DNA of 52,322 nt from a bacterium. Its GTDB lineage: Bacteria > Patescibacteriota > Minisyncoccia > UBA6257 > UBA9933. Location: the NCBI GenBank assembly GCA_021786355.1, contig JAJYNK010000011.1, forward strand, positions 1-52,322, read 5' to 3'. Below, piece by piece: positions 2,143-47,277 of the stretch (position 1 is its first letter; the number at the start of each line of letters is the position of its first letter). The translations under genes were made by a program, and so were the position numbers. The notes beneath the pieces are model-generated. The model saw only the letters and a list, made by a program, of their open reading frames with translations, was not told where the DNA came from and ran no database searches.

Positions 2143-2508
2143 TTATTCTTTATAAAGCCGTTTTGCGGAAAAATGAACTAAAAGATTGATAACGCTTATT
2201 AATATCGTAGCATACAGAAGCGGCGTTAGTCCAGATATTGTAATATCGGCTGAAAAATAGTCAAGGATGTAGAGAGTAAGCGAGTTAACAAGAATAATCC
2301 CTAACCCGAGAGTTATAAAAATTATCGGCGAGAAAATCAATTTTAAAACCGGTCTGATAAACAGATTTATCAAAGTGAATATCAGCGTCGCGCTGGCAAG
2401 CCCGTAAAGACTGGCGCTGATGTTGAATCCGGAAATAAAATACTTAGCCGCCAAAAGAGCCAATACGTTGGAAAAAAAGGAAAATATAAATTTTGAGATA
2501 AGGCGCAT
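2143..2508 (-). CDS. small integral membrane protein, DUF360 / phage-holin-4-like family
   Basis: 121 aa with four predicted TM helices. Resembles the YvlD/DUF360 family from memory. Confidence 0.55.
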   Translation of the reverse strand: MRLISKFIFSFFSNVLALLAAKYFISGFNISASLYGLASATLIFTLINLFIRPVLKLIFSPIIFITLGLGIILVNSLTLYILDYFSADITISGLTPLLYATILISVINLLVHFSAKRLYKE

Positions 2509-2951: not shown

Positions 2952-3635
2952 ATGTGGATTCAAAGTTTGACCGAAGCGACTGTGAGATCGCTCAGAACTT
3001 CTTGGGGCCAGGTCTACAATTTTGTGCCGGCTTTCATCGGCGCGATTGTGATATTGGTAATCGGTTTGATCGTCGCGGCTGTTTTGGGTTCTTTGGTTGA
3101 AAGGCTTTTTAGATCCATCAAACTCGACGAATTGCTTAGAAAACTCGGCTTTGCGACTTATGTGGAAAGAGCCGGTCTTCGAATGGATTCCGGAAAGTTC
3201 TTCGGCGCGATTGTTTATTGGTTCTTTATAATTGTTATTGTTTTGGCGGTTTCCAATATTTTGGGGCTTGAGGTGTTTTCAGCCTTCTTGACCCAGGTTC
3301 TTTTGTATTTGCCTAATATTTTTGTCGCCGCTTTGATTATGTTGGCCACTTTAGCCGTAGCCAAGTTTTTGAAGGCGGCTGTGAAGGCGTCGGCTCTTAG
3401 TGCCAGATTTCACGCGGCGAAATTTTTGGGAACCTTTGTTTGGTGGGTTGTCGCGATTTTCGGTTTTGTCACTGCTTTGTCCCAATTGGGGATAAACATT
3501 TTTATTTTCCAGGTTTTGATTTACGGTTTTGTCGCCATGCTGGCGATTGCCGGTGGCGTCGCTTTCGGCTTGGGAGGCAAAGATTACGCTTCTCACCTTG
3601 TTGATAGATTTAAGCAAGAGACAGAAGGAAGGTAA
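2952..3635 (+). CDS. polytopic membrane protein with conserved TM-helix repeats (MscS N-terminal-like)
   Basis: 227 aa with repeated hydrophobic helices. The repeat style matches the conserved TM-helix family. No MscS beta domain is present. Confidence 0.5.
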   Translation: MWIQSLTEATVRSLRTSWGQVYNFVPAFIGAIVILVIGLIVAAVLGSLVERLFRSIKLDELLRKLGFATYVERAGLRMDSGKFFGAIVYWFFIIVIVLAVSNILGLEVFSAFLTQVLLYLPNIFVAALIMLATLAVAKFLKAAVKASALSARFHAAKFLGTFVWWVVAIFGFVTALSQLGINIFIFQVLIYGFVAMLAIAGGVAFGLGGKDYASHLVDRFKQETEGR

Positions 3636-6765: not shown

Positions 6766-7779
6766 ATGGCGCAAAAAAAAGAAGACAAAAAAACCACTGG
6801 CGGATCAAAAGACATAGACGAGCTTTTAGAATCGCTTCAAGGTAAATTTGGCGAAGGAGCGATAATGAAGCTTGGCGACGCAAAAAAAATAAATGTTTCG
6901 GTTGTGCCGACCGGTTCATTTTCGCTTGATTTGGCTTTAGGGGTTGGCGGTTTTCCCAGAGGAAGAATTGTCGAGATTTTCGGGCCGGAATCATCCGGTA
7001 AAACCACTCTTGCTTTGCACGCGGTCGCCGAAGCGCAAAAAAAAGGAGGCAGGGCGGCTTTTATCGACGCCGAGCACGCGATGGATCCTGATTACGCCAA
7101 GCGTTTGGGGGTAAAAATAAACGATCTTTTGATATCCCAGCCAGACAGCGGAGAAGAGGCGCTTAATATTTTGGAAAATCTGGTGCGTTCGGGAATTATA
7201 GATATTATTGTTATTGACTCGGTTGCGGCGCTCACACCCAAAGCGGAGATAGAAGGAGAAATGGAACAGCAGTCGATAGGCCTTCAAGCGCGGCTAATGT
7301 CCAAAGCGCTTAGAAAAGTTACGGCCTTGGCGCACAACACCAATACCTTGATAATTTTTATAAACCAGCTTCGGGAAAAAATCGGAATAATGTTTGGTAA
7401 TCCCGAAACAACTCCAGGCGGACGGGCTTTAAAATTTTATTCTTCGGTTAGAGTCGACGTTAGGCGAACGGCGCAAATAAAAAAAGGCGACGAGGCTGTG
7501 GGTAATCGCGTTACTGCTAAAGTGGTAAAAAATAAAGTTGCCGCGCCTTTTAGAATGGCGGAATTCGATATTTTATTCGGCCAGGGGATTTCTTATGAAG
7601 GCGATGTTTTAACAGCCGCTATTAAATACGGTTCAGTTGCTAAAACCGGAAATACTTATATATTCGACGGAGAAAAGTTGGGCGTCGGATTTGACGCCTC
7701 CCGCGAAAAACTCAAAGAAGACAAAAAACTCGTGGAAGAAATAAAAAAGAAAACCCTGGCGGTAATCTCTGGAAAATGA
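6766..7779 (+). CDS. recA: recombinase RecA
   Basis: Canonical RecA sequence ([30 protein letters not shown]). Confidence 0.98.
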
Positions 7780-7885: not shown

Positions 7886-8461
7886 ATGAAAAAAGGAGAA
7901 ATTACCTTAAAAGCTCTCGAAGCCATAGGAGATACCGCAATAAATTTTTTTGACCTTATGGTTGTAATTATGGGCTCAAGGTACGGCGCCTCGTATGGCG
8001 AACTGGATTTTGAATTTAGAAAAAGACAATTCGAAAGAGAAGTAGAAGCAGGAAAACAATTAGAGAAGCAAAAATTTTACGACTTGGTTTATCGGCTTAA
8101 AAAGCAGGGATTAATACAAGAGAAAGAAAGTAAATTTAAATTAACGAAATTAGGATTTGAGAAGTTAAAATTTTTAAAAGAAAGGAAAAAAGAAAGTTTG
8201 CCAACTAATGATTTCCCTGCGGAAAAAGGAAATAATTTTTGTATCGTGATTTTTGATGTTCCTGAAGCCGAAAGAAGAAAAAGGGACTGGCTAAGAGATT
8301 CCTTGGGTCATCTCGGATTAAAAATGATTCAAAAAAGCGTTTGGATCGGCAAAGTAAAAATACCCAAACCATTTTTGAATAGTTTGTTTAAATTAAAAAT
8401 GTTGGATTACGTAGAAATTTTTGAAATTACCAAAGCCGGTAGTTTAAAGCACGTAGTCTAG
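7886..8461 (+). CDS. winged-helix + Cas2/PaaX-like ferredoxin-fold domain protein (paralog A)
   Basis: C-terminal block FCIVIFDVPEAERRKRDWLRDSLGHLGLKMIQKSVWIGK…YVEIFEITKAGSLK has the Cas2/PaaX pattern (beta1 hhhhFD[IV]PE, helix, QKSVW). The N-terminal half has wHTH-like YRLKKQGLIQEKESKFKLTKLG. Paralogs are at 36328 and 46648. Confidence 0.6.
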   Translation: MKKGEITLKALEAIGDTAINFFDLMVVIMGSRYGASYGELDFEFRKRQFEREVEAGKQLEKQKFYDLVYRLKKQGLIQEKESKFKLTKLGFEKLKFLKERKKESLPTNDFPAEKGNNFCIVIFDVPEAERRKRDWLRDSLGHLGLKMIQKSVWIGKVKIPKPFLNSLFKLKMLDYVEIFEITKAGSLKHVV

Positions 8462-11105: not shown

Positions 11106-11127
11106 TTAACTGGTTTTGGATAATGAG

Positions 11128-11523
11128 ATGGCGAGCGATTTTAAGGATTTGAAAATTTGGCAGGAAGCTTATCGTTTGTCTCTCGCGGTTTATAAAATAA
11201 CTGCAAAATTTCCCACAGAAGAAAAATTTTCATTGGTTGATCAGCTTCGGCGTTCAAGTATTTCAGTAGCGGCAAACATAGCAGAGTCAGCAGGTAGGTA
11301 TCATGGCAAAGACAAGATAAACCTATTAATTATAGCCAGAGGCTCGATTTGTGAAACAAGAAGCCATTTATTAATCGCATTGGGATTGAAATATTTAAGC
11401 AAAGAAAAATCTGAAGAACTGGAAAATGATTATGAAATTTTATCTAAACAAACAAATTCATTTATCGGATTTTTAAAGAAGCAAAAATCAACCAACCAAC
11501 TAACTAACCAATTAACCAACTAA
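11128..11523 (+). CDS. four-helix-bundle protein (23S rRNA intervening-sequence protein family)
   Basis: DLKIWQEAYRLSLAVYKIT…FSLVDQLRRSSISVAANIAES is typical of this family. The ATG at 11128 is preferred over the TTG at 11116. The C-terminal STNQLTNQLTN is encoded by a tetramer repeat. Confidence 0.75.
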   Translation: MASDFKDLKIWQEAYRLSLAVYKITAKFPTEEKFSLVDQLRRSSISVAANIAESAGRYHGKDKINLLIIARGSICETRSHLLIALGLKYLSKEKSEELENDYEILSKQTNSFIGFLKKQKSTNQLTNQLTN

Positions 11524-16654: not shown

Positions 16655-17293
16655 ATGAAATATCGTTTTTTGATATGGTCTTTGATTGCTTTGGGAATAT
16701 TTGCCGTTGTTTTGGCGATTGTCGGATTTATTACCAGGCCCGTGCCGGCTTCTTCGGACGAACTAGCAATCCCTGTTTCTGATAATGATTGGTATTTAGG
16801 TTCTAAAAACGCCAAAGTAACGCTGGTTGAATACAGCGATTTCGAGTGTCCGGCTTGCAAGGCTTACGCGCCGATTATAACGCTGCTTAATAAGGATTTT
16901 CCCAATGATTTGAAAATAGTTTATCGGCATTTTCCTTTGCCTCAGCATAAAAACGCGCGAGTTGCGGCCCAAGCCGCGGAAGCCGCGGGGAAACAGGGAA
17001 AATTTTGGGAAATGGAAAACCTGATTTTTGAAAAGCAAAACGAATGGGCAGACAATAGTAATGCGGAAGAAAATTTTGTTTCATACGCGACGTCGCTGGG
17101 TTTGAATATCGAAAAATTCAAAAGCGACTTTAATTCGGATTTAACCAAAACAAAAATCGAAAGCGATTATGCAAGCGGCGAAGAATCAAAACTAACCTAC
17201 ACCCCCACCTTTTTCTTGAATTCAAAGAAAATAAGCAATCCTCAAAACTATGAAGAATTCAAGTCGCTAATAGAAACTCGGATAGGAAAATAA
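16655..17293 (+). CDS. DsbA-family thioredoxin-fold oxidoreductase, membrane anchored
   Basis: An N-terminal TM helix and a CPAC active site (EYSDFECPACKAY). Confidence 0.8.
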   Translation: MKYRFLIWSLIALGIFAVVLAIVGFITRPVPASSDELAIPVSDNDWYLGSKNAKVTLVEYSDFECPACKAYAPIITLLNKDFPNDLKIVYRHFPLPQHKNARVAAQAAEAAGKQGKFWEMENLIFEKQNEWADNSNAEENFVSYATSLGLNIEKFKSDFNSDLTKTKIESDYASGEESKLTYTPTFFLNSKKISNPQNYEEFKSLIETRIGK

Positions 17294-17295
17294 AT

Positions 17296-17814
17296 ATGTT
17301 TAAAATCCCTAAATGGTCTCTGTGGTCTTATTTAATTTTAAGTTTTGCGGGCTTTGTCGACGCGGCGTACGTAACCGCTAAAATTTACCTAAGCAGCCCT
17401 TTGAGCTGCGCGTTTTTTGAAAACTGTAATAGAGTTATAAATTCTTCTTACTCAAAAATTTTCGGAGCGCCGATAAGTTTGCTGGGCGCGGTTTTTTATT
17501 TGACAATTTTTTTGCTTTCGGTTTATTATGTGGATGTTTCGGCTCGGCGAGACATCCACCCTGAGCTCAAGGTGGAAGGGCCTGTCGAACGGGTGGATGT
17601 TAAAAGGGACCTGGCTTTAAAAGCCATTTTCTTTTTAACCGCCTTCGGTTTTGCTTTTTCATTATATTTGGTATATATTCAAGCGTTTTTATTGAATCAA
17701 TTTTGTTTGTATTGTCTGGTTTCGGCTTTAATTTCATTAATTTTATTTTTAAACACGGGATTTAATTATTTAAAAATGCGAAATATTGAATTGACTCAAG
17801 ATGAATCCCGTTAG
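17296..17814 (+). CDS. vitamin K epoxide reductase (VKOR) family protein
   Basis: A loop Cys pair (SCAFFENC) and a TM CxxC motif (FCLYCLVSA), adjacent to the DsbA-like gene. Carries a 63-nt GC-rich in-frame insert. Confidence 0.8.
   Translation: MFKIPKWSLWSYLILSFAGFVDAAYVTAKIYLSSPLSCAFFENCNRVINSSYSKIFGAPISLLGAVFYLTIFLLSVYYVDVSARRDIHPELKVEGPVERVDVKRDLALKAIFFLTAFGFAFSLYLVYIQAFLLNQFCLYCLVSALISLILFLNTGFNYLKMRNIELTQDESR
17539..17601. repeat. 63-nt GC-rich hairpin insert inside the VKOR CDS, bounded by a 9-bp direct repeat
   Basis: GTGGATGTT occurs at 17530-17538 and 17593-17601, exactly 63 nt (21 codons) apart. The interior contains ACATCCAC(CC), complementary to both copies, and the hairpin CCACC-N10-GGTGG. 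Confidence 0.75.
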
Positions 17815-17907
17815 AAATGGGATTAAATAATAAAATTTGCTAATTTATGAATTTATACAAAAAAAGTTGTTGTAAAAATATGGTGTTTGCGCCATTTCTA
17901 ACGGGAT
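17805..17907. repeat. 16-bp perfect inverted repeat (ATCCCGTTAGAAATGG) enclosing a 71-nt AT-rich spacer
   Basis: The left arm (17805-17820) contains the VKOR stop codon. The right arm (17892-17907) runs into the secD ATG (17906). Same arm family as 28132-28200. Confidence 0.85.
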
Positions 17908-22927: not shown

Positions 22928-24430
22928 ATGGATGACATAACAGTAATCGGAAAAACAAATTTTAGAAATCAAGAAGTTAAATTTGGCATCAAAGCCCAGG
23001 ACAGAAGAAGGCATATGTATGTTATCGGCCAAACCGGAACCGGCAAAACGACCTTGCTTGAAAATATGGTTATTGACGATATCCGCGCGGGTCGCGGCGT
23101 GGGCATTATCGACCCTCACGGAGAATTTGCCGAAAAAATTTTGGAATTTATTCCCGAAGAGCGCGTTGATGATGTTATTTATTTTAACCCGGCCGACGTA
23201 GATAATCCGATCGCTTTCAATCCTTTGGAAAAAGTAGGAATGGAATATCGGCACCTTATCGCATCCGGCATAATGGGCGTCTTTAAAAAGATTTGGGTTG
23301 ACGCCTGGTCGGCCAGAATGGAATATATTTTGAACAATACCTTGTTGGCGCTTTTAGAGTTTCCGGAATCAACTCTTTTGGGGATAATGAGGATGTTTTC
23401 GGACAAAGATTACCGTAAAAAAATCGTTGACAATGTCCAGGATCCCGTTATTAAAGCTTTTTGGGAAAATGAATTCTCCCGCTATTCCCAGCGTTTTGAA
23501 GTGGAAGCGGTGGCGGCCATTCAAAACAAAGTCGGCCAGTTTGTTTCTAATCCTTTAGTAAGAAACATCATTGGCCAAACCCATTCAACGATTGATTTGA
23601 GAAAGATAATGGATGAAGGAAAAATCTTAATCGTTAATTTGTCAAAAGGAAGGATAGGCGAGGATAACTCTGCTCTTTTAGGGGCGATGCTGATAACCAA
23701 GCTTCAGATGGCGGCGATGTCTAGAATTGACATTCCCGTGGATAAACGCCGAGACTTTTATCTTTATGTGGATGAGTTTCAGAATTTTTCAACCGAATCA
23801 TTCGCCAATATTTTATCGGAGGCCAGAAAATACGCCCTAAATTTGACTTTAGCGCATCAATATATAGAACAGCTTGATGAAAAAGTCAGGGCGGCTATTT
23901 TCGGAAACGTAGGCACGGTGATTCTTTTTAGGGTCGGAGCTTTTGACGCCGAGTTTTTAGAAAAGCAATTTATGCCCGAATTTGAAGTCAATGATTTGGT
24001 TAATCTTCCTAATTACCATATTTATTTAAAGCTTTTAATAGATGGCGTTTCCGGCAAGCCGTTTTCAGCCGCCGCGCTGGCGCCGATTTCAATGATCGGT
24101 GAATCGTATTCGGACGTTCTTATCGAAAATAGCCGGAGAAAATACAGCGTTGCAAGATCGATTGTTGAAGAAAAAATCGCTTCCGAGTGGAGCGCCGGAG
24201 TTGCTTCCGCCCAGGATAAAGTATTTCGCCGCGAAGAGAGGCCAGTTAGGGAAGTTTTAGATGGAGGGGGGATTATAAAAAATGAAGCGATGCGAATAAA
24301 AAAAGACGTTATCCAAAAAGAAAGGCCCAATGTGGATATCGGGGATTTGCAGAAATCCATCAGAGAATCGCTGGAAAATAAAACAGAGGAAGGAAAACCT
24401 TCAGCAGAAGAAAAGAACCCAGAACAATAG
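22928..24430 (+). CDS. TraD/VirD4-like (type IV coupling protein-like) P-loop ATPase, soluble form
   Basis: Walker A (VIGQTGTGKTT) and Walker B (FYLYVDEFQNF) motifs. The layout matches TraG/TraD/VirD4-type DNA-translocating NTPases, but there is no N-terminal TM segment. Confidence 0.75.
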   Translation: MDDITVIGKTNFRNQEVKFGIKAQDRRRHMYVIGQTGTGKTTLLENMVIDDIRAGRGVGIIDPHGEFAEKILEFIPEERVDDVIYFNPADVDNPIAFNPLEKVGMEYRHLIASGIMGVFKKIWVDAWSARMEYILNNTLLALLEFPESTLLGIMRMFSDKDYRKKIVDNVQDPVIKAFWENEFSRYSQRFEVEAVAAIQNKVGQFVSNPLVRNIIGQTHSTIDLRKIMDEGKILIVNLSKGRIGEDNSALLGAMLITKLQMAAMSRIDIPVDKRRDFYLYVDEFQNFSTESFANILSEARKYALNLTLAHQYIEQLDEKVRAAIFGNVGTVILFRVGAFDAEFLEKQFMPEFEVNDLVNLPNYHIYLKLLIDGVSGKPFSAAALAPISMIGESYSDVLIENSRRKYSVARSIVEEKIASEWSAGVASAQDKVFRREERPVREVLDGGGIIKNEAMRIKKDVIQKERPNVDIGDLQKSIRESLENKTEEGKPSAEEKNPEQ

Positions 24431-24438
24431 GAATAGTT

Positions 24439-24820
24439 CTGTCATTGCGAGCGTAGCGAAGCAATCTCTTTTCTTTCCGAGAATATTTTGTTGTTCTATG
24501 GATAAGCAATATTTTGTATATTTTATGACCAATAAAGCTAATACAGTTATTTATGTAGGCATCACCAATAATTTAAAAAAGAGGGCTCATCAACATAAAA
24601 ATAAATTAATGAATGGCTTTACAAAAAAGTATAATGTAAATAAACTTATTTATTACGAAATATACGATAATGCGTATAACGCGATTTCAAGAGAGAAACA
24701 AATCAAAAGCGGCTCAAGGCAGAAAAAGATTAACTTGATTAATAAAATAAATAAAGAATGGAAAGATTTATATTATGAATTGTAAAGATTGCTTCGTCGC
24801 TTCGCTTCTCGCAATGACAG
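24439..24820. mobile_element. GIY-YIG gene cassette bracketed by imperfect inverted repeats
   Basis: The left repeat is CTGTCATTGCGAGCGTAGCGAAGCAATCT (24439-24467). The reverse complement of the right repeat (24787-24820) is CTGTCATTGCGAGAAGCGAAGCGACGAAGCAATCT. An extra partial copy AGTCATTGCGA is at about 24832-24842. Confidence 0.6.
24498..24785 (+). CDS. GIY-YIG nuclease family protein (small, UPF0213-like)
   Basis: YFVYFMTNKANTVIYVGITNNLKKRAHQH…REKQIK carries the GIY…YVG, R and E motifs. The start at the internal ATG (24498) is preferred, because the upstream extension overlaps the previous CDS and the repeat. Confidence 0.85.
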   Translation: MDKQYFVYFMTNKANTVIYVGITNNLKKRAHQHKNKLMNGFTKKYNVNKLIYYEIYDNAYNAISREKQIKSGSRQKKINLINKINKEWKDLYYEL

Positions 24821-25484: not shown

Positions 25485-26687
25485 ATGGATGCAAAAGATT
25501 TAAAAAAATCAGTTGTTTTTGTGATGATGTCCGGAGGAGTAGATAGCTCCGTGGCTGCTTTTTTGTTGCAAAAACAAGGATATAAGGTTATCGGCTGTTT
25601 TATAAGGGGTTATAATGTTGACGGCTGTCAGGAAAAAGAATCTGAAGACGCCCGCCGGGTTGTCGAATATTTGAACATTCCTTTTTATGTGGTTGATTTG
25701 GAAAATGAATATAAAAAACTCGTGGTTGATTATACTGTCAGGTCTTATAAAGAAGGAATTACTCCCAATCCGGACGTGATGTGCAATAAAGAAATAAAAT
25801 TCGGATTGTTTTTTAAAAAAGCGATTGAATTGGGAGCGGATTATGTGGCAACCGGGCATTACGTGAGGCTTGGTTTTCGGGATATTTTTCGCGGAACCGG
25901 CCGTCTTCTTGCTCCAGCGGCAAGAAGCGGCCTTGGCTCTCGGCTTATTCGCCCCGCCTACGGCGGGGGCCAAGCCGAATTAGCCTCCGAGACATTCCGC
26001 TCAAAAACCCCCGAAAAACTCGCCAGTTTTTATTTAAGGGAGGCCAAGGATAAAAACAAAGACCAATCTTATTTTTTGTGGACTTTAAAACAAAATCAGC
26101 TCAAACGTTGTTTGTTCCCCATCGGCGATTATGAAAAACCGGTGGTAAGAAAAATCGCCAAAAAAGCCGGGCTGCCTACGGCCGAGAAAAAAGATTCTCA
26201 GGGGATTTGTTTTTTAGGAAAAGTTCCGATGGAGGTTTTTTTAAAAAAATTCATTTCACCCAAAAAAGGAAAGATTGTTAATTTGGAAGGAAAAAAAATA
26301 GGCGAGCATCAGGGAGTTTATTTTTATACCATTGGCCAGCGGCATGGGCTCGGCATTGCCGGGAAGCGTCCTTTTTATGTGGCGGAAAAGGATGCGGTTA
26401 ATAATGTCATAAAAGTTGCCCAAGGCAGCGATGACCAAAACTTATTTAAAAAAGAAGCCTATTTAAAAGCGGTTAATTGGATAAGTGGAGAAGTTCCCAA
26501 AGAAAAAATGGAGGTTTTGGCAAGAGTAAGATACAGGCAGCCGCTTTCTCCCGCTTCCCTTTATAAGCTAAAAGCTGACAGCTATAAGCTAATTTTTGAT
26601 TCTAGTCAAAAATTCGTGGCCCCTGGCCAGTCAGCGGTATTGTATAATAAGAAAGGGGAAATGCTGGGCGGCGGCATCATAAGTTAG
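25485..26687 (+). CDS. mnmA: tRNA 2-thiouridine(34) synthase MnmA, carrying a ~145-nt GC-rich in-frame insert
   Basis: PP-loop (MSGGVDSSVAA), NPDVMCN, ATGHY and KDQSYFLW motifs. The GHYVR-to-KDQSYF spacing is about 46 aa longer than in E. coli MnmA as I recall it. Confidence 0.92.
   Translation: MDAKDLKKSVVFVMMSGGVDSSVAAFLLQKQGYKVIGCFIRGYNVDGCQEKESEDARRVVEYLNIPFYVVDLENEYKKLVVDYTVRSYKEGITPNPDVMCNKEIKFGLFFKKAIELGADYVATGHYVRLGFRDIFRGTGRLLAPAARSGLGSRLIRPAYGGGQAELASETFRSKTPEKLASFYLREAKDKNKDQSYFLWTLKQNQLKRCLFPIGDYEKPVVRKIAKKAGLPTAEKKDSQGICFLGKVPMEVFLKKFISPKKGKIVNLEGKKIGEHQGVYFYTIGQRHGLGIAGKRPFYVAEKDAVNNVIKVAQGSDDQNLFKKEAYLKAVNWISGEVPKEKMEVLARVRYRQPLSPASLYKLKADSYKLIFDSSQKFVAPGQSAVLYNKKGEMLGGGIIS
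25874..26018. repeat. GC-rich nested-hairpin element inside the mnmA CDS
   Basis: Terminal pairing TTTTCGGG…GCGGAA / TTCCGC…CCCGAAAA. Internal hairpins are CCGTCTTCTTGC-N6-GCAAGAAGCGG and GGCTT-ATTC-GCCCCGCC-TACG-GCGGGGGC-C-AAGCC. Confidence 0.7.
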
Positions 26688-28095: not shown

Positions 28096-28131
28096 AAATA
28101 TGTAAAAATAAATAAATTATATACGAGGTTC

Positions 28132-28200
28132 ATCCCGTTAGAAGTAGCCCGCCCACAGGTCCTTCGGACGCGCAAGCGCGGATGCGACTTCTAACGGGAT
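28132..28200. repeat. hairpin element with ATCCCGTTAGAAGT arms and a GC-rich loop
   Basis: ATCCCGTTAGAAGT (28132-28145) and its reverse complement (28187-28200). The right arm encodes the last three codons plus stop of gatA. The loop contains GCGCAAGCGC. Confidence 0.8.
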
Positions 28201-30684: not shown

Positions 30685-31605
30685 TTATTTTCCAATATCG
30701 AAAATTTTAAAAGCGTTTTGAGTTGTTTGCTCGCTCATTTTTTCCAGTGAAATGTTTTTTATTTTCGCCATTTTTTGGGCAGTTTCTTTTATGTAAATCG
30801 GTTCGTTTCTTTTGCCTTTATGCGGTTCGGGCGCGACATACGGGGCGTCGGTTTCCAAAAGAATTTTTTCCAAAGGAATAAATTTTATAATTTCGTCAAA
30901 TTGGCGATTGTAAGTGATTAACCCTCCGAATGTGAAATAAAAACCCATTTCCAAAAGAGTTCTAGCGTCTTCAATGGTTCCGGTAAAAAAATGGATTATC
31001 CCCGGAGGAGTATTTAGGAGTTGGGAGTTAGAACTTAGGATTTGAATTAAGTCGGAGAATGCTTTTGTGGCGGCACCACGCTGAGCGTGGTTGGAGTCGC
31101 GCTCGGCGCGACAATGGATCATTAGAGGTTTATTTAGTTCTTTGGCCAGTTTTATTTGTTGAACAAATGTATTTTTTTGAATTTCTTTCAAATTTTCAAA
31201 TCTTAAATCGTCATTTTTATTTTTTATTTTTAAATTTTTAATTTGAGCGGAGCGATAGTAGTCCAACCCGCATTCTCCGATCGCCACGACTTTTTCGTTT
31301 AAGGCTATTTTTTTATAAAATTCATAATCAAAATTTTCACTTCTCGAATTAAAACCGTTTCCTCCGCCGATTTCTTGCGGATCTAAATGAATGCTGTTGG
31401 TGTGGATCGGGTGAAGCCCGACTGCGGCGTAAACGCCCTCAGAGTATTTATTCGCTAATTCCACCGCTTTTTCAGAGGTGTCTTTTTGGCTGCCTGCGTT
31501 TACTGTCCAGATATTGCTGTCCAGAGTTCTCTTTATAACTTCTTCGCGGTCCTTATCAAAGGCCGAAAATTGAAGGTGGGTATGGGAATCGAATAAGAAA
31601 GGCAT
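30685..31605 (-). CDS. tatD: TatD-family metal-dependent hydrolase/DNase
   Basis: FDSHTHL, ECGLDY, MIHCR and ETDAPY motifs. The start at the second ATG (31605) is preferred, because the upstream 11 codons lie in a repeat array. Confidence 0.88.
   Translation of the reverse strand: MPFLFDSHTHLQFSAFDKDREEVIKRTLDSNIWTVNAGSQKDTSEKAVELANKYSEGVYAAVGLHPIHTNSIHLDPQEIGGGNGFNSRSENFDYEFYKKIALNEKVVAIGECGLDYYRSAQIKNLKIKNKNDDLRFENLKEIQKNTFVQQIKLAKELNKPLMIHCRAERDSNHAQRGAATKAFSDLIQILSSNSQLLNTPPGIIHFFTGTIEDARTLLEMGFYFTFGGLITYNRQFDEIIKFIPLEKILLETDAPYVAPEPHKGKRNEPIYIKETAQKMAKIKNISLEKMSEQTTQNAFKIFDIGK
31076..31112. repeat. pair of GC-rich hairpins inside the tatD CDS
   Basis: CCACGC-TGA-GCGTGG (31076-31090) and GTCGCGC-TCG-GCGCGAC (31096-31112). 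Together they encode the extra segment …AERDSNHAQRGAAT… right after the conserved IHCR motif. Confidence 0.6.
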
Positions 31606-31638
31606 AAAATAAGCTGTTAGCTGATAGCTTTTAGACAT

Positions 31639-31680
31639 GAGGTTTAGCTTCCTAAAAGCTAAAAGCTTTAAGCTATAAGC
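31639..31680. repeat. heptamer micro-array at the metG|tatD junction
   Basis: - strand: GCTTATA GCTTAAA GCTTTTA GCTTTTA GGAAGCT AAACCTC. AGCT-based units continue into 31606-31638. Confidence 0.75.
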
Positions 31681-33115
31681 TATTGAGGCGGGGGAAAAGA
31701 TTCTCTCCTTTTTGGTTATTTTGAATGCTGGTTAAAATTTTATCAGCTGTTTGAGGAAGAAACGGTAAAAGAAGCTCGGCGGATTTTTTGAGTAACAAAA
31801 CCAAGCCAGCCAAAACATCTTTTTTGTTCTCGGGGTTTTCCCAGGGTTTTTCGTTGTTGACTATTGAGTCGCCGTATCCGATAAGTCCCCATATTGTAGC
31901 CAGAGCTTCGTTGAGTTTAAATTCATCTATTTTTTTATTAACGGCGCTCTCCACTTCTTTTATTTTTAAAATTATTTCTTCTTTCGGCTGACAGTCTTTC
32001 AAATCAATTTTTGTGGCAATTGTCAGGACGCGCGCGGAAAAATTTCCCAGTCCGTTGGCTAAGTCGGAATTGTACCGTTCTTTGAGTTTTTCTTCGGTAA
32101 GGTCGCCATCGTCAAGCGTTGGGATTTCTTTAAGCAGATAATATCTTACGGCTTCTGCACCGTATTTTTCTATCAGCTCAAAAGGGGATATAACGTTTCC
32201 CAATGATTTAGACATTTTATGGCCGTTTGAAGTGATGAAACCATGGGTCATTATGGTTTTTGGTATTGGCAATTTTGCCGACAGAAGCATAGCCGGCCAA
32301 ATCGCGGCGTGGAATCTCAAAATGTCTTTTCCTATTAAATGAATATCGGCAGGCCAAAATTTATCGAATAATTCGCTTGAATTAGATCCGTATCCGATTC
32401 CGGTTATATAATTTGGCAGCGCGTCGCCCCACACATAAATAATTTGGTTTTCATCGCCGGGAACCGGAATGCCCCAGGAAAGTTTTTCTTTTATTCTCGA
32501 AAAAGAAATATCTTCCAGCCCGTCGTTTAGGAGCGCGAGAATTTCATTTTTACGGGATTCGGGAACGATATTTAGTTCTCCGGATTTAATTTTTTCTTTT
32601 AATACTTGGGAATATTTGGAGAGTTTAAAAAACCAATTTTCTTCTTCAATAGTTTCGACTTCTTTCAAGTGAATTGGGCATTTATTTCCATCGATAAGAA
32701 CTTTTTTGGTTTTGAATTCTTCGCAGCCAACGCAATAAAGGCCCTTATATTTTCTTTTTTCCAAATCGCCGTTTTCCTCGATTTTCTTCCAAAGTTTGGC
32801 GACTCCCGGCCAGTGTTTTTCTTTGTCCGTGGTCCGGATAAAATAGTCGTTGGAAATTTCTAATTTTTGGCAGAGTGATTTAAATTCGGCGCCGATTTCA
32901 TCTGTGAATTCTTGCGGACTCTTGCCGCTTTTTTTCGCCGCTTCATAAACTTTTTGGCCGTGTTCGTCTGTGCCGGTCAAAAAAAATACATCCTCATTTT
33001 TACTACGATGATATTTGGCTAAAACATCGGCCTGTATGAATTCCAGGGCGTGGCCTATATGAGGGGAAGCGTTTGTGTAGGCAATCGCCGTTGTAATATA
33101 AAACTTCTTTCTCAT
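31673..33115 (-). CDS. metG: methionyl-tRNA synthetase
   Basis: HIGH motif (SPHIGH), KMSKS motif and a CxxC…CP zinc knuckle. The ATG at 33115 is preferred over the TTG at 33118. Confidence 0.95.
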   Translation of the reverse strand: MRKKFYITTAIAYTNASPHIGHALEFIQADVLAKYHRSKNEDVFFLTGTDEHGQKVYEAAKKSGKSPQEFTDEIGAEFKSLCQKLEISNDYFIRTTDKEKHWPGVAKLWKKIEENGDLEKRKYKGLYCVGCEEFKTKKVLIDGNKCPIHLKEVETIEEENWFFKLSKYSQVLKEKIKSGELNIVPESRKNEILALLNDGLEDISFSRIKEKLSWGIPVPGDENQIIYVWGDALPNYITGIGYGSNSSELFDKFWPADIHLIGKDILRFHAAIWPAMLLSAKLPIPKTIMTHGFITSNGHKMSKSLGNVISPFELIEKYGAEAVRYYLLKEIPTLDDGDLTEEKLKERYNSDLANGLGNFSARVLTIATKIDLKDCQPKEEIILKIKEVESAVNKKIDEFKLNEALATIWGLIGYGDSIVNNEKPWENPENKKDVLAGLVLLLKKSAELLLPFLPQTADKILTSIQNNQKGENLFPRLNSL

Positions 33116-33116
33116 C

Positions 33117-33144
33117 AAGAGTTATTGGTTACGAGTTATAAGTT
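33117..33144. repeat. heptamer micro-array upstream of metG
   Basis: - strand: AACTTAT AACTCGT AACCAAT AACTCTT, then g-ATG. It shares the 12-mer AACTTATAACTC with the recA-upstream array (6719-6730). Confidence 0.8.
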
Positions 33145-36327: not shown

Positions 36328-36897
36328 ATGCGAGGAGAAAAACGGTTAAAAATTTTGGAATTTCTTTCAGAATCAACCCGCACAGCAGGAGATTTATTTT
36401 CTATTTTTACAATGCCGTACGGAACATCACTTTATAGGGGATTGAAAACAGCGGAAAGATATCATCAAGAACGAGAAAATAGAGAGATAGAAAGGAGAGA
36501 ACGGCTAAATTTCAACGATCTAATTTATAGATTAAGAAAAGACGATCTCGTAGAAGAATTTGGGGAAAAAAGAAAAAAATTTTTTCGCCTAACAGATAAG
36601 GGAAAAAATAGTTTGGCAAAGCTTGAGTTAAGAATATTAACTGATAATTACGAGATAAAAAGGGATAATTTAGTGAAAATTGTAGTTTTCGACATACCAG
36701 AGAAAAAAAGGAAAATGCGCGATTGGATCAGAAGAATATTAGTAAATTTGGAATTTAATATGCTCCAAAAAAGTGTTTGGATCGGCAAAACAAAAATTCC
36801 GGAAGAATTTATTAAACAACTTAGGAATCTAAACCTCTTGTCTTATGTGGAAATATTTGAGATAAGTAAAACTGGAAGTTTAAAGCAAATAAAATAA
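36328..36897 (+). CDS. winged-helix + Cas2/PaaX-like ferredoxin-fold domain protein (paralog B)
   Basis: VKIVVFDIPEKKRKMRDWIRRILVNLEFNMLQKSVWIGKTKIPEEFI…YVEIFEISKTGSLKQIK. Clear paralog of 7886-8461 and 46648-47232. Confidence 0.6.
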   Translation: MRGEKRLKILEFLSESTRTAGDLFSIFTMPYGTSLYRGLKTAERYHQERENREIERRERLNFNDLIYRLRKDDLVEEFGEKRKKFFRLTDKGKNSLAKLELRILTDNYEIKRDNLVKIVVFDIPEKKRKMRDWIRRILVNLEFNMLQKSVWIGKTKIPEEFIKQLRNLNLLSYVEIFEISKTGSLKQIK

Positions 36898-37224: not shown

Positions 37225-37482
37225 ATGGCAAACCAAAAAGAATATATTAGAAATCGCGCGGATTCAAACATAAGCAAAATCATTATTGACCGCGATCTTT
37301 GCATAGGCGCGGCATCTTGCATTGCCGTTTCCGGCTCCACATTTGAGTTGGATAACGAAAATAAAGCGGTGGTAATAGGAGCCGACACGGCGGACGATGA
37401 AACTTTAAAAATGGCCGCCGAATCCTGCCCCACTAAAGCAATTTTGCTTTTTGACAAAGAAGGTAAGCAGGTTTATCCATAA
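37225..37482 (+). CDS. small ferredoxin (single [4Fe-4S]/[3Fe-4S] type)
   Basis: DRDLCIGAASCIAV…ESCPTKAI: a CxxxxxC…CP ferredoxin pattern. Confidence 0.72.
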   Translation: MANQKEYIRNRADSNISKIIIDRDLCIGAASCIAVSGSTFELDNENKAVVIGADTADDETLKMAAESCPTKAILLFDKEGKQVYP

Positions 37483-37486
37483 ATAT

Positions 37487-37626
37487 TTTAAACAATAATA
37501 TTCTTTCGCTACCGTTCAGCCTCCCAGCGAGCGGCTTCACTGGCGCCGCTCCTTCGCTCGGTCGCCTATGGCGACCACCGTGCCCGCTCAGTCGCGGAGC
37601 CGCGCTCAAGAACATTATTGTTTAAA
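37487..37626. other. GC-rich hairpin element bounded by AT-rich 17-bp inverted repeats
   Basis: TTTAAACAATAATATTC (37487-37503) pairs with GAACATTATTGTTTAAA (37610-37626) at 16/17 positions. The 106-nt GC-rich core has hairpins GAGCGG…CCGCTC and GTCGCC-TATG-GCGAC. Confidence 0.6.
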
Positions 37627-37641
37627 ACAACATAAATTAAA

Positions 37642-38901
37642 ATGGAAAAATATAAGTATGTAATTGTGGGCGGGGGAGTTGCGGGCTTTACGGCGGCTGA
37701 AACATTGCGACAAAAAGACGTAAGCGCCACGATTGCTGTTATAAACAGCGAACCGTACGCCTTATATTCGCGTGTGATGTTGTCAAAGCCCGACTTTTTT
37801 TTGGGCAAAATTCCTTTTGATAAAGTTTGGATGAGAGGCCAGGATTGGTACGAGAAAAACAATATAACTTTTTTTGGCAGTAAAACAGCCGCGTCGCTTG
37901 ATGCCGATAAAAAAATTGTAAAACTATCCGATGGCTCGGAATTAGGCTATGAAAAACTGCTTATTGCCACCGGAGTTTGCGCCAGAAAATGGGGCATTCC
38001 CGGATCCGAAAGAGAGGGCGTTTATTATTTGCGCACCATTGACGACGGAAAGAAAATAATGGAGGCGATAAAATCCGCAAAGCGCGCCGTCACTATCGGC
38101 GGAGGGTTTATTAGTTTTGAAATGGCGGATTTGTTTGCTTTGGCGAAAATAGATACAAGTGTTGTTATTAGGGAAAATTATTTTTGGGAGCCGACTTTAG
38201 ATGAAGCCTCCGGCAAAATGATTGAAAAAGTCCTTACTGGGAGCGGCGTTAAAATAATAAACAACGCCGAAGTCCAGGAAGTTGTAGGCGAGAATAAAGT
38301 TGAGGGTATTGTTTTAAAAGACGGCAGGAAAATAGAGTGCGATATGGTTATTTGCGGAATCGGAGTAGCTTGCGATTTTAACTGGTTTGCTTCATCGGGA
38401 ATAAAAACAAACCGGGGAATTTTAGCGGATGAATATCTTCAAACCAATTTGCCTGACGTGTGGACTGCTGGAGACATTGCCGAATACAACGACCTGCTTT
38501 TGGAAGAAAATATCCAGCTTGGCAACTGGGTGAATGCCCATGAGCAGGGAAGGATTGCCGGGTTAAATATGGCCGGCGTTCACGAGCCGTTTAAATTCGT
38601 TTCGTTTTATACGACTCAAGGAATGGGGATCTCCGTCGCTTTTGTCGGAGATACCAGGCCCGGCCAGGACAGAATAATAATCAAGCGCGGTTATCCGGAA
38701 ATAAATTCCTACGCCCGCATAATTATTGTTGGCAAAGAACTTGTGGGCGCGACTTTAATAAACAGAACCAGTGAGTTATCGGTAATCGCCAAACTTATTG
38801 AAAATAATATTGACGTTTCTCAAAAATATAAGGAACTCGAAGACCCGAATTTTGATTTGAAAGGGCTTTTAAAAACAGAAGTAAAAATTATTCAGTTATA
38901 A
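37642..38901 (+). CDS. FAD-dependent pyridine nucleotide-disulfide oxidoreductase (ferredoxin/rubredoxin reductase-like)
   Basis: An N-terminal GGGVAGFTAA dinucleotide fold, a second Rossmann motif (VTIGGGFISFE) and GDIAE. Confidence 0.8.
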   Translation: MEKYKYVIVGGGVAGFTAAETLRQKDVSATIAVINSEPYALYSRVMLSKPDFFLGKIPFDKVWMRGQDWYEKNNITFFGSKTAASLDADKKIVKLSDGSELGYEKLLIATGVCARKWGIPGSEREGVYYLRTIDDGKKIMEAIKSAKRAVTIGGGFISFEMADLFALAKIDTSVVIRENYFWEPTLDEASGKMIEKVLTGSGVKIINNAEVQEVVGENKVEGIVLKDGRKIECDMVICGIGVACDFNWFASSGIKTNRGILADEYLQTNLPDVWTAGDIAEYNDLLLEENIQLGNWVNAHEQGRIAGLNMAGVHEPFKFVSFYTTQGMGISVAFVGDTRPGQDRIIIKRGYPEINSYARIIIVGKELVGATLINRTSELSVIAKLIENNIDVSQKYKELEDPNFDLKGLLKTEVKIIQL

Positions 38902-41770: not shown

Positions 41771-43573
41771 TTATAATATTTCGTTTAATTGTTTTGCAAG
41801 TTCAACGACGTCAAAAGGCAAAGAGTCGTATTTTAAAATTTTATTTTCAATGTTAATTCCAGTTTTTTCGCGGATTATTGAAGCCAGTTGTCCGGAGCGG
41901 TTATTTTCAACAATAATTACTTTTTTTGCGTTTTTTAAATTCTCCGCCACCTTCTCCGTGTCAAACGGCGACATCCAGAGTATTTGCAAAAATTTCGGTT
42001 GATTTTTCAAATATTTTGCCGCTTCCAAAACAGCGCCTTTTGTCGAGCCCCAGAAAACAACGATATTTTTGGATTTTGGATCACCGTAAAATTTCACGGT
42101 TTCATATTTTGAAAAATCTTTTTCCAATTGTTTTAATTTTGAAAAACGCTTGTCGCCCATGGCTTTTACCATTTTCGGGTCTTCGGTTGAAATTCCCTCT
42201 TCGCTGTGTTCGTAGCTGGTGACTTTTATAACCGCGTCCGGCGTTCCCGGATATGCCATCGGCGATACTCCGTCTTCGGTTATTTGATAACGCTTATATT
42301 CGCTGTTAATTTTTTCGTCGATCTTCCCCCTTTCAACGGTGATTTCATTCGAGTTAAAAATTACTGTCGATGAGTTTTCCGATAAGTGTTTGTCCAAAAG
42401 CACAATTGCCGGCATCTGGTATTTCCAAGTCAAATTCAAGGCGTCCGCCCCTGCTTTAAAAGCTTCTTCCGGATCTCCGGGCGCGATTACTATTCGTGGG
42501 AATTCTCCGTGGCCTGAATTAATAATCCATTTTAAATCTCCCTGGCTGGTGTGGGTTGGGGAGCCGGTTGCCGGCGCCTGTCTTTGCGAAACCGCGATGG
42601 CTATCGGCGTTTCAGACATCCCAGCCAAAGCGAACGCTTCCTGCATAAGCGCGAATCCGCCTCCGGCTGTGCCTATCGCGGTACGCTTTCCTGCGTAAGC
42701 AGCGCCGAGCGCCATATTAATAACTGAAATTTCGTTTTCCGGATGTATTACTTTAAAAGTTTTTTCTTTCTCCGACGCTTGTGGTCGGTCCGACGACTCC
42801 GACGAGTGTCGGACTCCGTCGGAGAGTCCCGATCCCTCTGGGCGTCGGGACTGATTTTTCGCCAAATAATGCAAAATTGAAGTTGACGGAGTCATTGGAT
42901 AGCCGATATAAAAATCAAGCCCTGCTGCCAAAAGTCCTTTGGCAAAAGCGGTATTTCCGTCCGCCAGTTCCTTTCCTTTATCTCCACCGTGTTCCATTCT
43001 TCGGGAGTGTCGGAACCCGAGTTTTTCCAAATATTTATATCCTTTTTCCGCCAATGTTATGTTTATCTCATATCCCTTTTCTTTAAAAACCCGACGTAAA
43101 ATTTGGTCCATTTCATCAAAGGGCAAATCTAATAAATAACAAACAGCGCCGAGAGCCACAGAAGTCCGGGTTATTGCCGGAGCGTTTGATTCCTCCGCTG
43201 TTTTTACCATTGGAAGCAGTACTGCGTTTTGGCCAAACATTTTTAAGTCCTCGGCGTCGAATTTATCGGAAAAAACAACCGCTTCGGCGTTCAAATCGTT
43301 TTTATGAAGATGCATTGTTTCGTCGTTTAAGGCGATTAAAACGTCTATTTTTGAATAATCATTGTAAATTTTTTCTTTGGAAAAACTGATGCGCGAAAAA
43401 TTATGCCCGCCTCGAATAAGCGACGGATAATCAAAAGAAACAAAAACTTCAAAGCCGAGCTTTGTAAGAAATTGTCCCAAATTCGTGCCGGCTTCGCGCA
43501 CGCCGTCTCCGGCTGCTCCGCCAATGGCAACCGTAAAAATATTAGGGGGTTGATTTTTCTTTTTCCAGAACAT
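41771..43573 (-). CDS. 2-oxoacid:ferredoxin oxidoreductase alpha subunit with fused gamma domain
   Basis: An N-terminal gamma-type motif (IGGAAGDGVREAG) followed by the alpha domains. It abuts the beta gene with no gap. Carries an 84-nt GC-rich in-frame insert. Confidence 0.88.
   Translation of the reverse strand: MFWKKKNQPPNIFTVAIGGAAGDGVREAGTNLGQFLTKLGFEVFVSFDYPSLIRGGHNFSRISFSKEKIYNDYSKIDVLIALNDETMHLHKNDLNAEAVVFSDKFDAEDLKMFGQNAVLLPMVKTAEESNAPAITRTSVALGAVCYLLDLPFDEMDQILRRVFKEKGYEINITLAEKGYKYLEKLGFRHSRRMEHGGDKGKELADGNTAFAKGLLAAGLDFYIGYPMTPSTSILHYLAKNQSRRPEGSGLSDGVRHSSESSDRPQASEKEKTFKVIHPENEISVINMALGAAYAGKRTAIGTAGGGFALMQEAFALAGMSETPIAIAVSQRQAPATGSPTHTSQGDLKWIINSGHGEFPRIVIAPGDPEEAFKAGADALNLTWKYQMPAIVLLDKHLSENSSTVIFNSNEITVERGKIDEKINSEYKRYQITEDGVSPMAYPGTPDAVIKVTSYEHSEEGISTEDPKMVKAMGDKRFSKLKQLEKDFSKYETVKFYGDPKSKNIVVFWGSTKGAVLEAAKYLKNQPKFLQILWMSPFDTEKVAENLKNAKKVIIVENNRSGQLASIIREKTGINIENKILKYDSLPFDVVELAKQLNEIL
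42769..42852. repeat. 84-nt GC-rich multi-hairpin element inside the OFOR alpha CDS
   Basis: TCTCCGACG (42769-42777) pairs with CGTCGGAGA (42817-42825). GTCCGAC (42788-42794) pairs with GTCGGAC (42808-42814). AGTCCCGA (42825-42832) pairs with TCGGGACT (42845-42852). The 28 codons encode …RRPEGSGLSDGVRHSSESSDRPQAS…. Confidence 0.7.
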
Positions 43574-46647: not shown

Positions 46648-47232
46648 TCATGTCTTTAATTGTTTTAAACTGCCAGTTTTGCTTATTTCAAATATTTCAA
46701 CATACGGTAGAAGATCAAAATTTTTTAGATTGTGTATCAATTCTTCGGGAAGCTTTGTTTTTCCAATCCAAACACTTTTCTGCAACATTTTAAATTTCAA
46801 ATTTCTGAGAACCTCTCTTATCCACCCTCTTTTCTTCCTGTGCTTTTCTGGAATGTCAAATATTATAATTTTAAATGTATTTTCGTTTTCTATTTTATAT
46901 ACTTTTTGAGGAAACTCATTTGTTTTTCTTAAACGAAGATTTTCCAATTTCTCCGCGCCTTTTTTGGTTATTTGCAATGATTTTTTATTTTCTTTATTAA
47001 TATTTTCGATTAACCCCTCTTTTCTTAGGCGATATAATAGATCGTAAAAACGCAATTTTTCTTCGCGATCTATTTGTCGGCCTTCTCTTTCTCTTTGGCG
47101 GCGCGCTAAAAGTTTTAATCCTTTATTTAATGAAGTTCCATAGGGTAAGCTAAAAATAAAAAACACATTGCCTATGGTTTGAGCTGATTGTTCGAGGGTT
47201 TCTAATATTTTTAATCCATACTCTCCTTTCAT
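46648..47232 (-). CDS. winged-helix + Cas2/PaaX-like ferredoxin-fold domain protein (paralog C)
   Basis: FKIIIFDIPEKHRKKRGWIREVLRNLKFKMLQKSVWIGKTKLPEELI…YVEIFEISKTGSLKQLKT. The start at the ATG at 47232 is preferred, because the longer ORF runs through the upstream palindrome. Confidence 0.6.
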   Translation of the reverse strand: MKGEYGLKILETLEQSAQTIGNVFFIFSLPYGTSLNKGLKLLARRQREREGRQIDREEKLRFYDLLYRLRKEGLIENINKENKKSLQITKKGAEKLENLRLRKTNEFPQKVYKIENENTFKIIIFDIPEKHRKKRGWIREVLRNLKFKMLQKSVWIGKTKLPEELIHNLKNFDLLPYVEIFEISKTGSLKQLKT

Positions 47233-47245
47233 AATTATTATTTTA

Positions 47246-47277
47246 ATCGTATATCTGACGATCGTCAAATATACGAT
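47246..47277. promoter_or_regulatory. 32-bp palindrome with ACGATCGT core, upstream flank of cassette C
   Basis: ATCGTATATCTG-ACGATCGT-CAAATATACGAT. The arms are 11/12 complementary. It lies 14 nt from the ATG at 47232. Confidence 0.7.

Follow-up and report, generated by a model that had tools for sequence, protein, structure and literature searches.

How does a block of GC-rich, hairpin-forming DNA come to lie in frame within the gene for a membrane protein, what becomes of it there, and does it belong with any known class of inserted sequence? The question is raised by a VKOR-family gene of a tiny groundwater bacterium of the candidate phyla radiation (CPR; Patescibacteria), carried on a 52,322-nt stretch of DNA with 39.5% GC (assembly GCA_021786355.1, contig JAJYNK010000011.1, positions 1-52,322 of the forward strand), which is referred to here as the window. 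The gene, a member of a narrow, Wolfebacteria-like VKOR clade, holds a 63-nt insert bordered by a 9-bp direct repeat, and its relatives carry the insert in shorter or longer form or lack it. The insert is probably foreign GC-rich palindromic DNA, similar in kind to the Rickettsia palindromic elements (RPEs) or to repetitive extragenic palindromes (REPs) of the intragenic sort, that is tolerated, translated and prone to precise loss.

The insert within the VKOR gene

The host gene, the insert and the repeat copies at its borders lie as follows.

17296..17814, plus strand: VKOR-family host gene, 172 aa (Pfam PF07884, E = 2.6e-26)
17533..17595, plus strand: the 63-nt insert, GATGTT...CGGGTG, 21 codons, residues D80-V100
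17530..17538, plus strand: left repeat copy GTGGATGTT, made up of the host codon GTG and GATGTT, which doubles as the 5′ arm of hairpin 1
17593..17601, plus strand: right repeat copy GTGGATGTT, made up of the final insert codon GTG and the host codons GAT GTT

From 17524 to 17607 the window reads TATTAT GTGGATGTT TCGGCTCGGCGAGACATCCACCCTGAGCTCAAGGTGGAAGGGCCTGTCGAACGG GTGGATGTT AAAAGG. An earlier note on this DNA had described a 9-bp repeat, 63 nt apart and in frame, around the peptide VDV...VDV, and the description is exact: GTGGATGTT occurs just twice in the window, at 17530-17538 and 17593-17601, where 0.18 occurrences are expected and two copies were reached in 2 of 100 shuffles, and the peptide is VDV SARRDIHPELKVEGPVER VDV. 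The limits of the insert given above come from DNA alignment with the empty alleles of four related loci (L006, L010, L012 and L014) and, given the flanking repeat, could equally be written as 17530-17592 or 17539-17601. The identical 63-nt insert is present in two NCBI metagenome-assembled genomes (MAGs) and two ENA assemblies, and so it is no assembly artefact.

The composition of the insert is foreign to its surroundings. Its GC content, which the same note had recognized as high for the gene, is 62% against 39.5% for the window, and at third codon positions the GC fraction is 0.62 against 0.34 in the remainder of VKOR. Its mean codon fraction is 0.285 against 0.425, with minor codons such as CGG, CGA, CTC, GGG and GTG being used.

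The host gene scores 92.8 bits for PF07884 against a cut-off of 27.5, and its four cysteines, the loop pair C38 and C44 and the CxxC pair C137 and C140, are invariant in the orthologue alignment. An AlphaFold model (mean pLDDT, the predicted local distance difference test score, 72.8) has four long helices at residues 6-32, 60-87, 96-132 and 138-171. The residues of the insert, 80-100, are between the second and third of these, as had been expected of a segment lying between predicted transmembrane (TM) helices, with pLDDT lowest at 81-100. The insert is therefore in the TM2-TM3 loop, which, from established VKOR topology, we take to be a short cytoplasmic turn.

An allelic series in relatives

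A protein search for relatives of this VKOR found only 15. With the window included 16 sequences were aligned, of which nine have a single DV at the site of the insert; in the remaining seven the insert is 16, 21, 26 or 46 residues long. At the DNA level five length classes are distinguished.

0 nt (empty): L006, L010, L012, L013 and L014
48 nt: L003, L007, L009 and L093
63 nt: the window and L016-L019
78 nt: L011
138 nt: L001 and L002

All of the inserts are between the same two codons, and the preservation of frame claimed for the window extends to every length variant, each of which has a length divisible by three and no stop codon. This bears on whether the ribosome reads the insert at all. 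Programmed bypassing is known from T4 gene 60 and from the byp elements of Magnusiomyces mitochondria, and with take-off at the first GAT and landing at the second GAT or GAC the protein made would be that of the empty allele. Matching Asp codons do border the insert in all alleles, with the take-off codon placed in the 5′ arm of a hairpin, but bypassing would not need five length classes that are all in frame and stop-free, and the codon next after take-off is GTT (0.51 of Val codons), which is neither a stop nor rare. Bypassing is accordingly judged highly improbable.

The presence of the insert varies among sequences that otherwise scarcely differ. L009 with 48 nt and L010 with none are identical over 1,341 nt except for the indel, so that the change in insert state is recent relative to point substitution, and L093 with 48 nt and the empty L006 have 97.8% identity over 7 kb. 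In neighbour-joining trees of the flanks the 0, 48 and 63 states are interleaved, with the outgroup clade holding 138, 78 and 0. As the insert is present in both the ingroup and the L001/L011 outgroup clade, it is more economical to assume one gain with four or more losses than six or more gains without a visible donor. The trees from upstream and downstream sequence disagree in topology, and the empty allele P0013 (L012/L013) is a mosaic, its 5′ half being 89.6% identical to L001 and its 3′ half 99.3% identical to L011; together these show that the lineages recombine. The mosaic junction coincides exactly with the insert site and hints at a link between the insert and a recombination or deletion event.

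Further afield the segment is absent. Among 185,579 GTDB representative genomes the sole close relative is the Wolfebacteria MAG S40-20, whose allele is empty, and in all of 56 more distant VKOR loci (at most 42% identity) there are gaps across the segment. The alignment of orthologues that had been proposed as a check thus places the segment in a loop and makes it lineage specific, with several very close relatives as well as these 57 VKOR loci being without it, and no homologous segment was found in the unrelated lineages represented among these loci. By these alignments it is a lineage-restricted insertion, apparently still segregating.

The same series bears on whether the 16-46 residues are an adaptive extension of the loop, by which VKOR would acquire an additional surface for cytoplasmic interactions. 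No allele departs from the frame, and the peptide ends, SARRN(I/D)(H/Y) and PEL...VER(V/M), are alike among alleles. The latter is because there are few DNA differences among the alleles, while the threefold variation in length and the closest relatives lacking the segment, to which the low model confidence there may be added, make adaptation quite improbable.

Inspection of the borders does not support one earlier interpretation. The alleles have in common a 5′ module, GATGTT-TCGGCTCGGCG-RAACATC-YAY, and a 3′ end, TGTCGAACGG-RYR, and the flanking direct repeat is 9 nt long in the window, 8 in L007 and L003, 6 in L001, 4 in L011 and effectively 2 in L009. The left GATGTT is invariant in all six insert-bearing alleles, either because it is carried by the element or because it is held constant as the 5′ arm of hairpin 1. 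The right copy is elsewhere GTAGATGTT, ATGGACGTT, ATGGATGTT or GCGGATACT and matches the corresponding empty allele (GACGTT in both L009 and L010, GATACT in both L011 and L012). With a repeat that varies from 2 to 9 nt there is no clean, fixed-length target-site duplication, which is what the 9-bp repeat had been taken for.

Hairpins and the case for an RNA function

Both of the inverted repeats named in the earlier note are present, and they overlap.

17530..17559, plus strand: hairpin 1, GTGGATGTTTCG (17530-17541), the 6-nt loop GCTCGG and CGAGACATCCAC (17548-17559), with 11 of 12 positions pairing
17555..17576, plus strand: hairpin 2, an overlapping palindrome TCCACCCTGAGCT / AGCTCAAGGTGGA, 92% complementary, which is the CCACC...GGTGG hairpin of that note
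17500..17529, plus strand: a promoter-like TTGACA-18 nt-TATTAT, 11 of 12 consensus matches, within the VKOR coding sequence and ending just before the left repeat

The minimum-free-energy fold chooses hairpin 1, a 12-bp stem with one G.U that includes the left repeat copy, and leaves out hairpin 2. Longer alleles have extra hairpins inside the 3′ module. The stem of hairpin 1 extends 3 nt into the host codon, and the internal arm tracks the host-codon arm, TTA being paired with TA, and GTG or TTG with CA(C/T). Pairing holds in 91.7% of cells over the six alleles; two pairs differ on both sides, and each one-sided change leaves a G.U on the sense strand. The covariation score is 0.239 against 0.152, and 6 of 500 shuffles attained it; coming from six related sequences, it is suggestive only.

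The tracking of the host codon could also point to a purely local origin, in which template switching or slippage copied the flank first inverted and then direct (F - x - F′ - y - F) with no foreign element involved, later quasi-palindrome correction keeping the arms matched. The 8-9 nt before the insert do recur inside it, inverted as ACATCCAC and direct as GTGGATGT, the inverted copy follows the flank codon in all six alleles, and there are no other copies of the insert in the genome fragment. On the other side, for the rest of the insert (TCGGCTCGGCG and CCTGAG...GTCGAACGG) there is no template in the vicinity, the 3′ part is the same as the cross-phylum word described below, and the composition and codon usage are foreign. 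A local origin is on balance unlikely, and template switching may instead be the route by which foreign DNA was inserted.

The pairing data are likewise what would recommend an RNA function, either a sense-strand structure in the mRNA or a small RNA from the adjacent promoter-like site, being kept for regulation such as ribosome pausing after TM2 or mRNA stability. Hairpin 1 is maintained, with its two compensatory pairs and with G.U changes that pair on the sense strand only, and the near-consensus TTGACA-18-TATTAT ends directly at it. That promoter-like sequence is kept in all alleles, filled or empty, and may be merely AT-rich coding sequence. Set against regulation are the near-identical relatives that lack the whole element and are otherwise unchanged, the small number and relatedness of the six sequences, in which all but hairpin 1 varies in length, and a modest folding energy: that of the insert region is a little below that of shuffles (z = -1.78, with 13 of 200 shuffles as stable), and z-scores overall are only -1.8 to -2.4. 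There is no Rfam match in the window at gathering score, and relaxed Rfam searches gave noise only. Selection for an RNA function is therefore considered improbable.

A word dispersed across phyla

The search for other copies that had been proposed found neither part of the insert again in the 52-kb window or in about 100 kb of related loci. In other genomes the two parts differ: the 5′ module is confined to this VKOR site in the collections covered, and a word in the 3′ module is dispersed. The 3′ module is as follows.

17560..17592, plus strand: 3′ module CCTGAGCT[CAAGGTGGAAGGGCC]TGTCGAACGG, which is the word CCTGAGCTTGTCGAACGG interrupted by 15 nt

The 18-mer CCTGAGCTTGTCGAACGG is exact in L009 and has one mismatch in L003, L007 and L093; an interruption of 15 nt divides it in the window, and one of 30 nt in L011 and L001. 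At up to three mismatches there are no other copies in the window. Elsewhere at least 120 loci have it, and these belong to many phyla, including Acidobacteriota, Verrucomicrobiota (many of them Opitutia), Chloroflexota, Planctomycetota, Bacteroidota, Proteobacteria and Actinomycetota, and within the CPR in Levyibacteriota, Saccharibacteria, Paceibacterota, Peregrinibacteria and a Wolfebacteria MAG. The matches listed have context in common for which they were not selected, GCCTGC upstream (47-83% per position) and G downstream (78%), and among them 22 of 120 loci hold two to six copies within 8 kb. Relaxed matching adds 30 copies over 875 kb of these loci and none over 497 kb of controls.

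In low-GC genomes the word is within long open reading frames (ORFs). Five of its six reading frames are open and at least four of the five are used in other proteins, which is a further point against the VKOR insert being an adaptive loop. In Saccharibacteria leucyl-tRNA synthetase (LeuRS) it is read within LANEEVV-TRSTSSGQ-VGVCERC, where there is an 8-residue gap in the comparison with Thermus LeuRS (1h3n), and it is at the same LeuRS site in two Saccharibacteria species (L114 and L178). In a Levyibacteria PfkB kinase (L104, near 336-353) it is flanked by a perfect 14-nt direct repeat, again with an 8-residue gap in comparison with a solved structure (3h49). It is also in frame in RecB, Mfd and a CCA/HD enzyme (loci among L147, L096, L159 and L140), and it forms three tandem 27-nt units in an ORF of 2,666 aa. 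In plasmid and phage collections it is nearly absent, the matches there being weak and partial. No Rfam family covers it, and at gathering score 12 word-bearing loci gave only one tRNA and Acido-Lenti-1 elsewhere in the loci. A search of the literature for its DNA or peptide strings found nothing relevant.

Several candidate extensions of these observations were rejected. The idea that the word acts as the loop of stems drawn from local sequence was dropped, as bridging pairs (7.05) are not in excess of a flank-swap control (6.60), and 13 candidates for interrupted copies in other genomes turned out to be tandem or neighbouring units. No dispersed family is indicated for the 5′ module: the 68 matches to its 18-mer TCGGCTCGGCGRAACATC, which served as a control, are without exception singletons from unrelated GC-rich genomes and at about chance level, and the 21-mer GTTTCGGCTCGGCGRRACATC gave VKOR sites only, plus three or four chance matches in coding DNA.

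A proposed history of gain, tolerance and loss

On the reading favoured here, foreign palindromic DNA would have entered VKOR in an ancestor of the Wolfebacteria-like clade. The point of entry would be where TM2 ends, after its last codon and ahead of the Asp-Val with which the cytoplasmic TM2-TM3 loop begins. There the DNA would be translated as 16-46 extra loop residues and be tolerated as a presumably neutral segment. Slippage between the flanking GATGTT copies, aided by the hairpin between them, would excise it precisely and so yield the empty allele. Internal hairpin modules would be gained or lost in whole-codon steps, because only in-frame and stop-free variants survive selection, and homologous recombination between lineages would shuffle the resulting alleles. 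The data establish the insertion with its position and composition, the allelic series, the conservation of frame, the hairpin with its compensatory changes and the kinship of the 3′ module with a dispersed word; from them we infer a single ancient gain, loss by slippage, translation and neutrality.

A number of observations weigh against this account. Neither insert module has a second copy in the window or in the roughly 100 kb of related loci, and no transposase or RAYT gene is among the window ORFs or the annotated neighbours, which is why activity as a mobile element in this genome must be called unproven. In GTDB representative genomes and JGI metagenomes the 5′ module is only at this VKOR site. 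The exact 18-mer is in the shortest alleles, and were the longer forms the older ones, the word would have to have been restored exactly by a deletion; growth by nested hairpins fits the intact word in the shortest alleles at least as well as decay does. An invariant left GATGTT with a variable right copy would also fit repeated insertion of an element that carries GATGTT.

A different, and tentative, proposal is that the VKOR insert is one landing of an undescribed GC-rich word of about 18-25 nt, GCCTGC-CCTGAGCTTGTCGAACGG-G. Such a word would have spread across many phyla, several CPR lineages included. Its insertions into coding sequence would use any one of the five open frames, at times accompanied by a long target duplication (the 14 nt of the Levyibacteria kinase), and could then grow by nested hairpins and tandem units. 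It is a possible rather than a probable account. If true, it would point to templated or enzyme-driven insertion unlike that of classical MITEs (miniature transposable elements with inverted repeats) or insertion sequence elements, and, taken with the other islands of the window described next, in-frame hairpin inserts would be a general source of protein-loop variation in the CPR.

Gene neighbourhood and other GC-rich islands

Directly upstream of VKOR is a gene whose pairing with it is syntenic across all relatives, and secD and secF are downstream.

16655..17293, plus strand: DsbA-like thioredoxin-fold gene (Pfam Thioredoxin_4, 8.1e-27; DSBA, 4.2e-15)

The DsbA-like protein is likely the redox partner of VKOR. 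The VKOR stop codon is itself provided by a copy (17805-17907, extending to the secD start) of a different, dispersed hairpin family (CCCGTTAGAA), which has conserved arms ATCCCGTTAGAA(A/G)T... and ...TTCTAACGGGAT and a variable interior. Other copies of this family are at 28131-28201 in the window, at 7055-7108 and 13097-13143 in L001 and at 4346-4451 in L014, and one of the L001 copies is in frame in a ribonucleotide reductase gene (IYPVRNRTQTQASAISNG).

With their small, streamlined genomes, CPR bacteria are commonly regarded as repeat-poor. In the window there are several GC-rich islands, and comparison of them as a whole detected no sequence kinship. Two are within coding sequence. The MnmA ORF (25485..26687, plus strand) has an in-frame insert of about 135 nt and 61% GC at 25881-26012, encoding 44 residues (DIFRGTGRLL...FRSKTP), which is missing from the L003 orthologue; its fold is multi-branched, closed by TTTTCGGG / CCCCGAAAA, with a minimum free energy of -79.7 kcal/mol (z = -5.0) and no Rfam match. 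The ORF for the alpha subunit of 2-oxoacid:ferredoxin oxidoreductase (41771..43573, minus strand) has a GC-rich run of three or four hairpins near 42770-42860 (z about -4), read in frame as ...SRRPEGSGLSDGVRHSSESSDRPQASEKEK..., with about 16 residues more than the solved Sulfolobus enzyme 5b46. In the TatD gene (30685..31638, minus strand) the Pfam match is stretched, 298 residues over 252 profile positions, in the MetRS gene (31673..33118, minus strand) it is in two stretches, and there is a GC spike with two small hairpins at 31046-31133; this region may hold further in-frame inserts.

Two other islands are intergenic. That at 2540-2795, between ORFs 2143..2508 (minus strand) and 2952..3635 (plus strand), is 250 nt of 58% GC with a folding energy of -118.6 kcal/mol (z about -6). 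The AT-rich inverted flanks CCAGTGATTTTAT / ATAAAATCACTGG close it, and relaxing the thresholds brought no Rfam match either; a structured RNA not yet described is one possibility, a further hairpin island another. The second, at 37480-37640, upstream of ORF 37642..38901, is GC-rich (z about -6.2), has a 20-nt AT-rich inverted repeat TTTTAAACAATAATATTCTT / AAGAACATTATTGTTTAAAA and is also without an Rfam match. The small hairpin GTCGCCTAnGGCGAC is common to both.

Some further genes of the window may be recorded. Three small paralogous genes (7886..8461, 36328..36897 and 46648..47268) have a PaaX/Cas2-like domain. ORF 11116..11523 is, by synteny with L016, a 23S-rRNA-IVP-family gene, and 24330..24785 is a free-standing small GIY-YIG nuclease gene that sits between a TraG-like ATPase gene and efp.

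Comparison with known systems

Rickettsia palindromic elements, reportedly the subject of work by Ogata et al. in 2000 and 2002, were the comparison first made for this insert. They are palindromic, in frame in unrelated housekeeping genes, translated as surface or loop residues and compatible with function of the host protein (PMC10969869, PMC3733652). Their length is about 100-150 bp, their families have dozens of copies per genome with 44 integrations in R. conorii (PMC10969869), and some of them end in CGTC (PMC3733652). The VKOR insert is like them in being in frame, hairpin-forming and lineage specific, and is foreign as well, so to that extent the RPE signature first seen in it holds; its membership of an RPE family is not supported, and a second copy was not found in the window or in about 100 kb of related loci. 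It differs in its length of 48-138 nt, in having one copy in 52 kb and in its host, a CPR bacterium rather than an intracellular alphaproteobacterium, and neither CGTC nor GACG is in the 63-nt form.

The intragenic REPs of the GTAG/CGTC super-families (Di Nocera et al. 2013) are short GC-rich stem-loops inside ORFs of several phyla; they are commonest in Opitutus terrae, are often in repair genes and tRNA synthetases, have dimers that encode 20-30 residues and have G.T pairs in their stems (PMC3733652). The likeness here is with CCTGAGCTTGTCGAACGG, which is abundant in Opitutia MAGs and is within LeuRS, RecB and Mfd. The peptides STSSG, FDKLR and PELVE that it encodes are not in the supplementary tables of PMC3733652. 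REPs of these groups have GTAG, its degenerate forms GTRG or GTGG, or CGTC at one end of a stem-loop of 20-40 bp. At the junction of the VKOR insert, where a REP-type tag might be looked for, the window and L001 have GTGG followed by ATG, L007 and L093 have GTAG followed by ATG, L003 and L009 have ATGG and L011 has GCGG. Unlike that of typical REPs, this tetranucleotide is paired within the stem; the insert has no clear GTAG/CGTC tag and there is no RAYT among the window ORFs.

Yeast mitochondria have GC clusters and byps, which are organellar and multi-copy, and byps, being skipped by the ribosome, need not be in frame. These elements resemble the VKOR insert in being GC-rich hairpins in an AT-rich genome, sometimes in frame (var1), with presence/absence polymorphism and nested or variable forms; the contrast is that the VKOR insert always keeps the frame. 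Bacterial MITEs such as ERIC, BOX and the Coxiella QMITE make in-frame fusions (PMC10969869, PMC5896051), and the VKOR insert is similarly a small non-autonomous insert readable as part of its host ORF. MITEs, however, are bounded by terminal inverted repeats and have a target-site duplication whose length is fixed, and the VKOR insert has neither, its ends GATGTTTCGG... and ...GAACGGGTG not being inverted repeats.

Since in-frame palindromic inserts outside Rickettsia were already described (PMC3733652), the kind itself is not new. The earlier note had supposed it undescribed for CPR-type genomes, and for the CPR no earlier description of palindromic or in-frame repeat inserts was found in the literature searched. 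In its sequence features the VKOR insert appears to behave like RPEs and intragenic REPs but, in the sequence available, without their multi-copy family and CGTC tag. Inserts of this type fragment metagenome assemblies at strain-variable sites and create non-adaptive, lineage-specific 'insertions' in protein alignments. The most interesting by-products are the cross-phylum CCTGAGCTTGTCGAACGG, which raises the testable question of a very small and widely travelled insertion sequence, and the number of in-frame GC-rich hairpin islands in a small genome. The VKOR locus, a core redox gene, has the merit of being a natural setting in which to see how such DNA enters coding sequence, is tolerated in it and leaves it.

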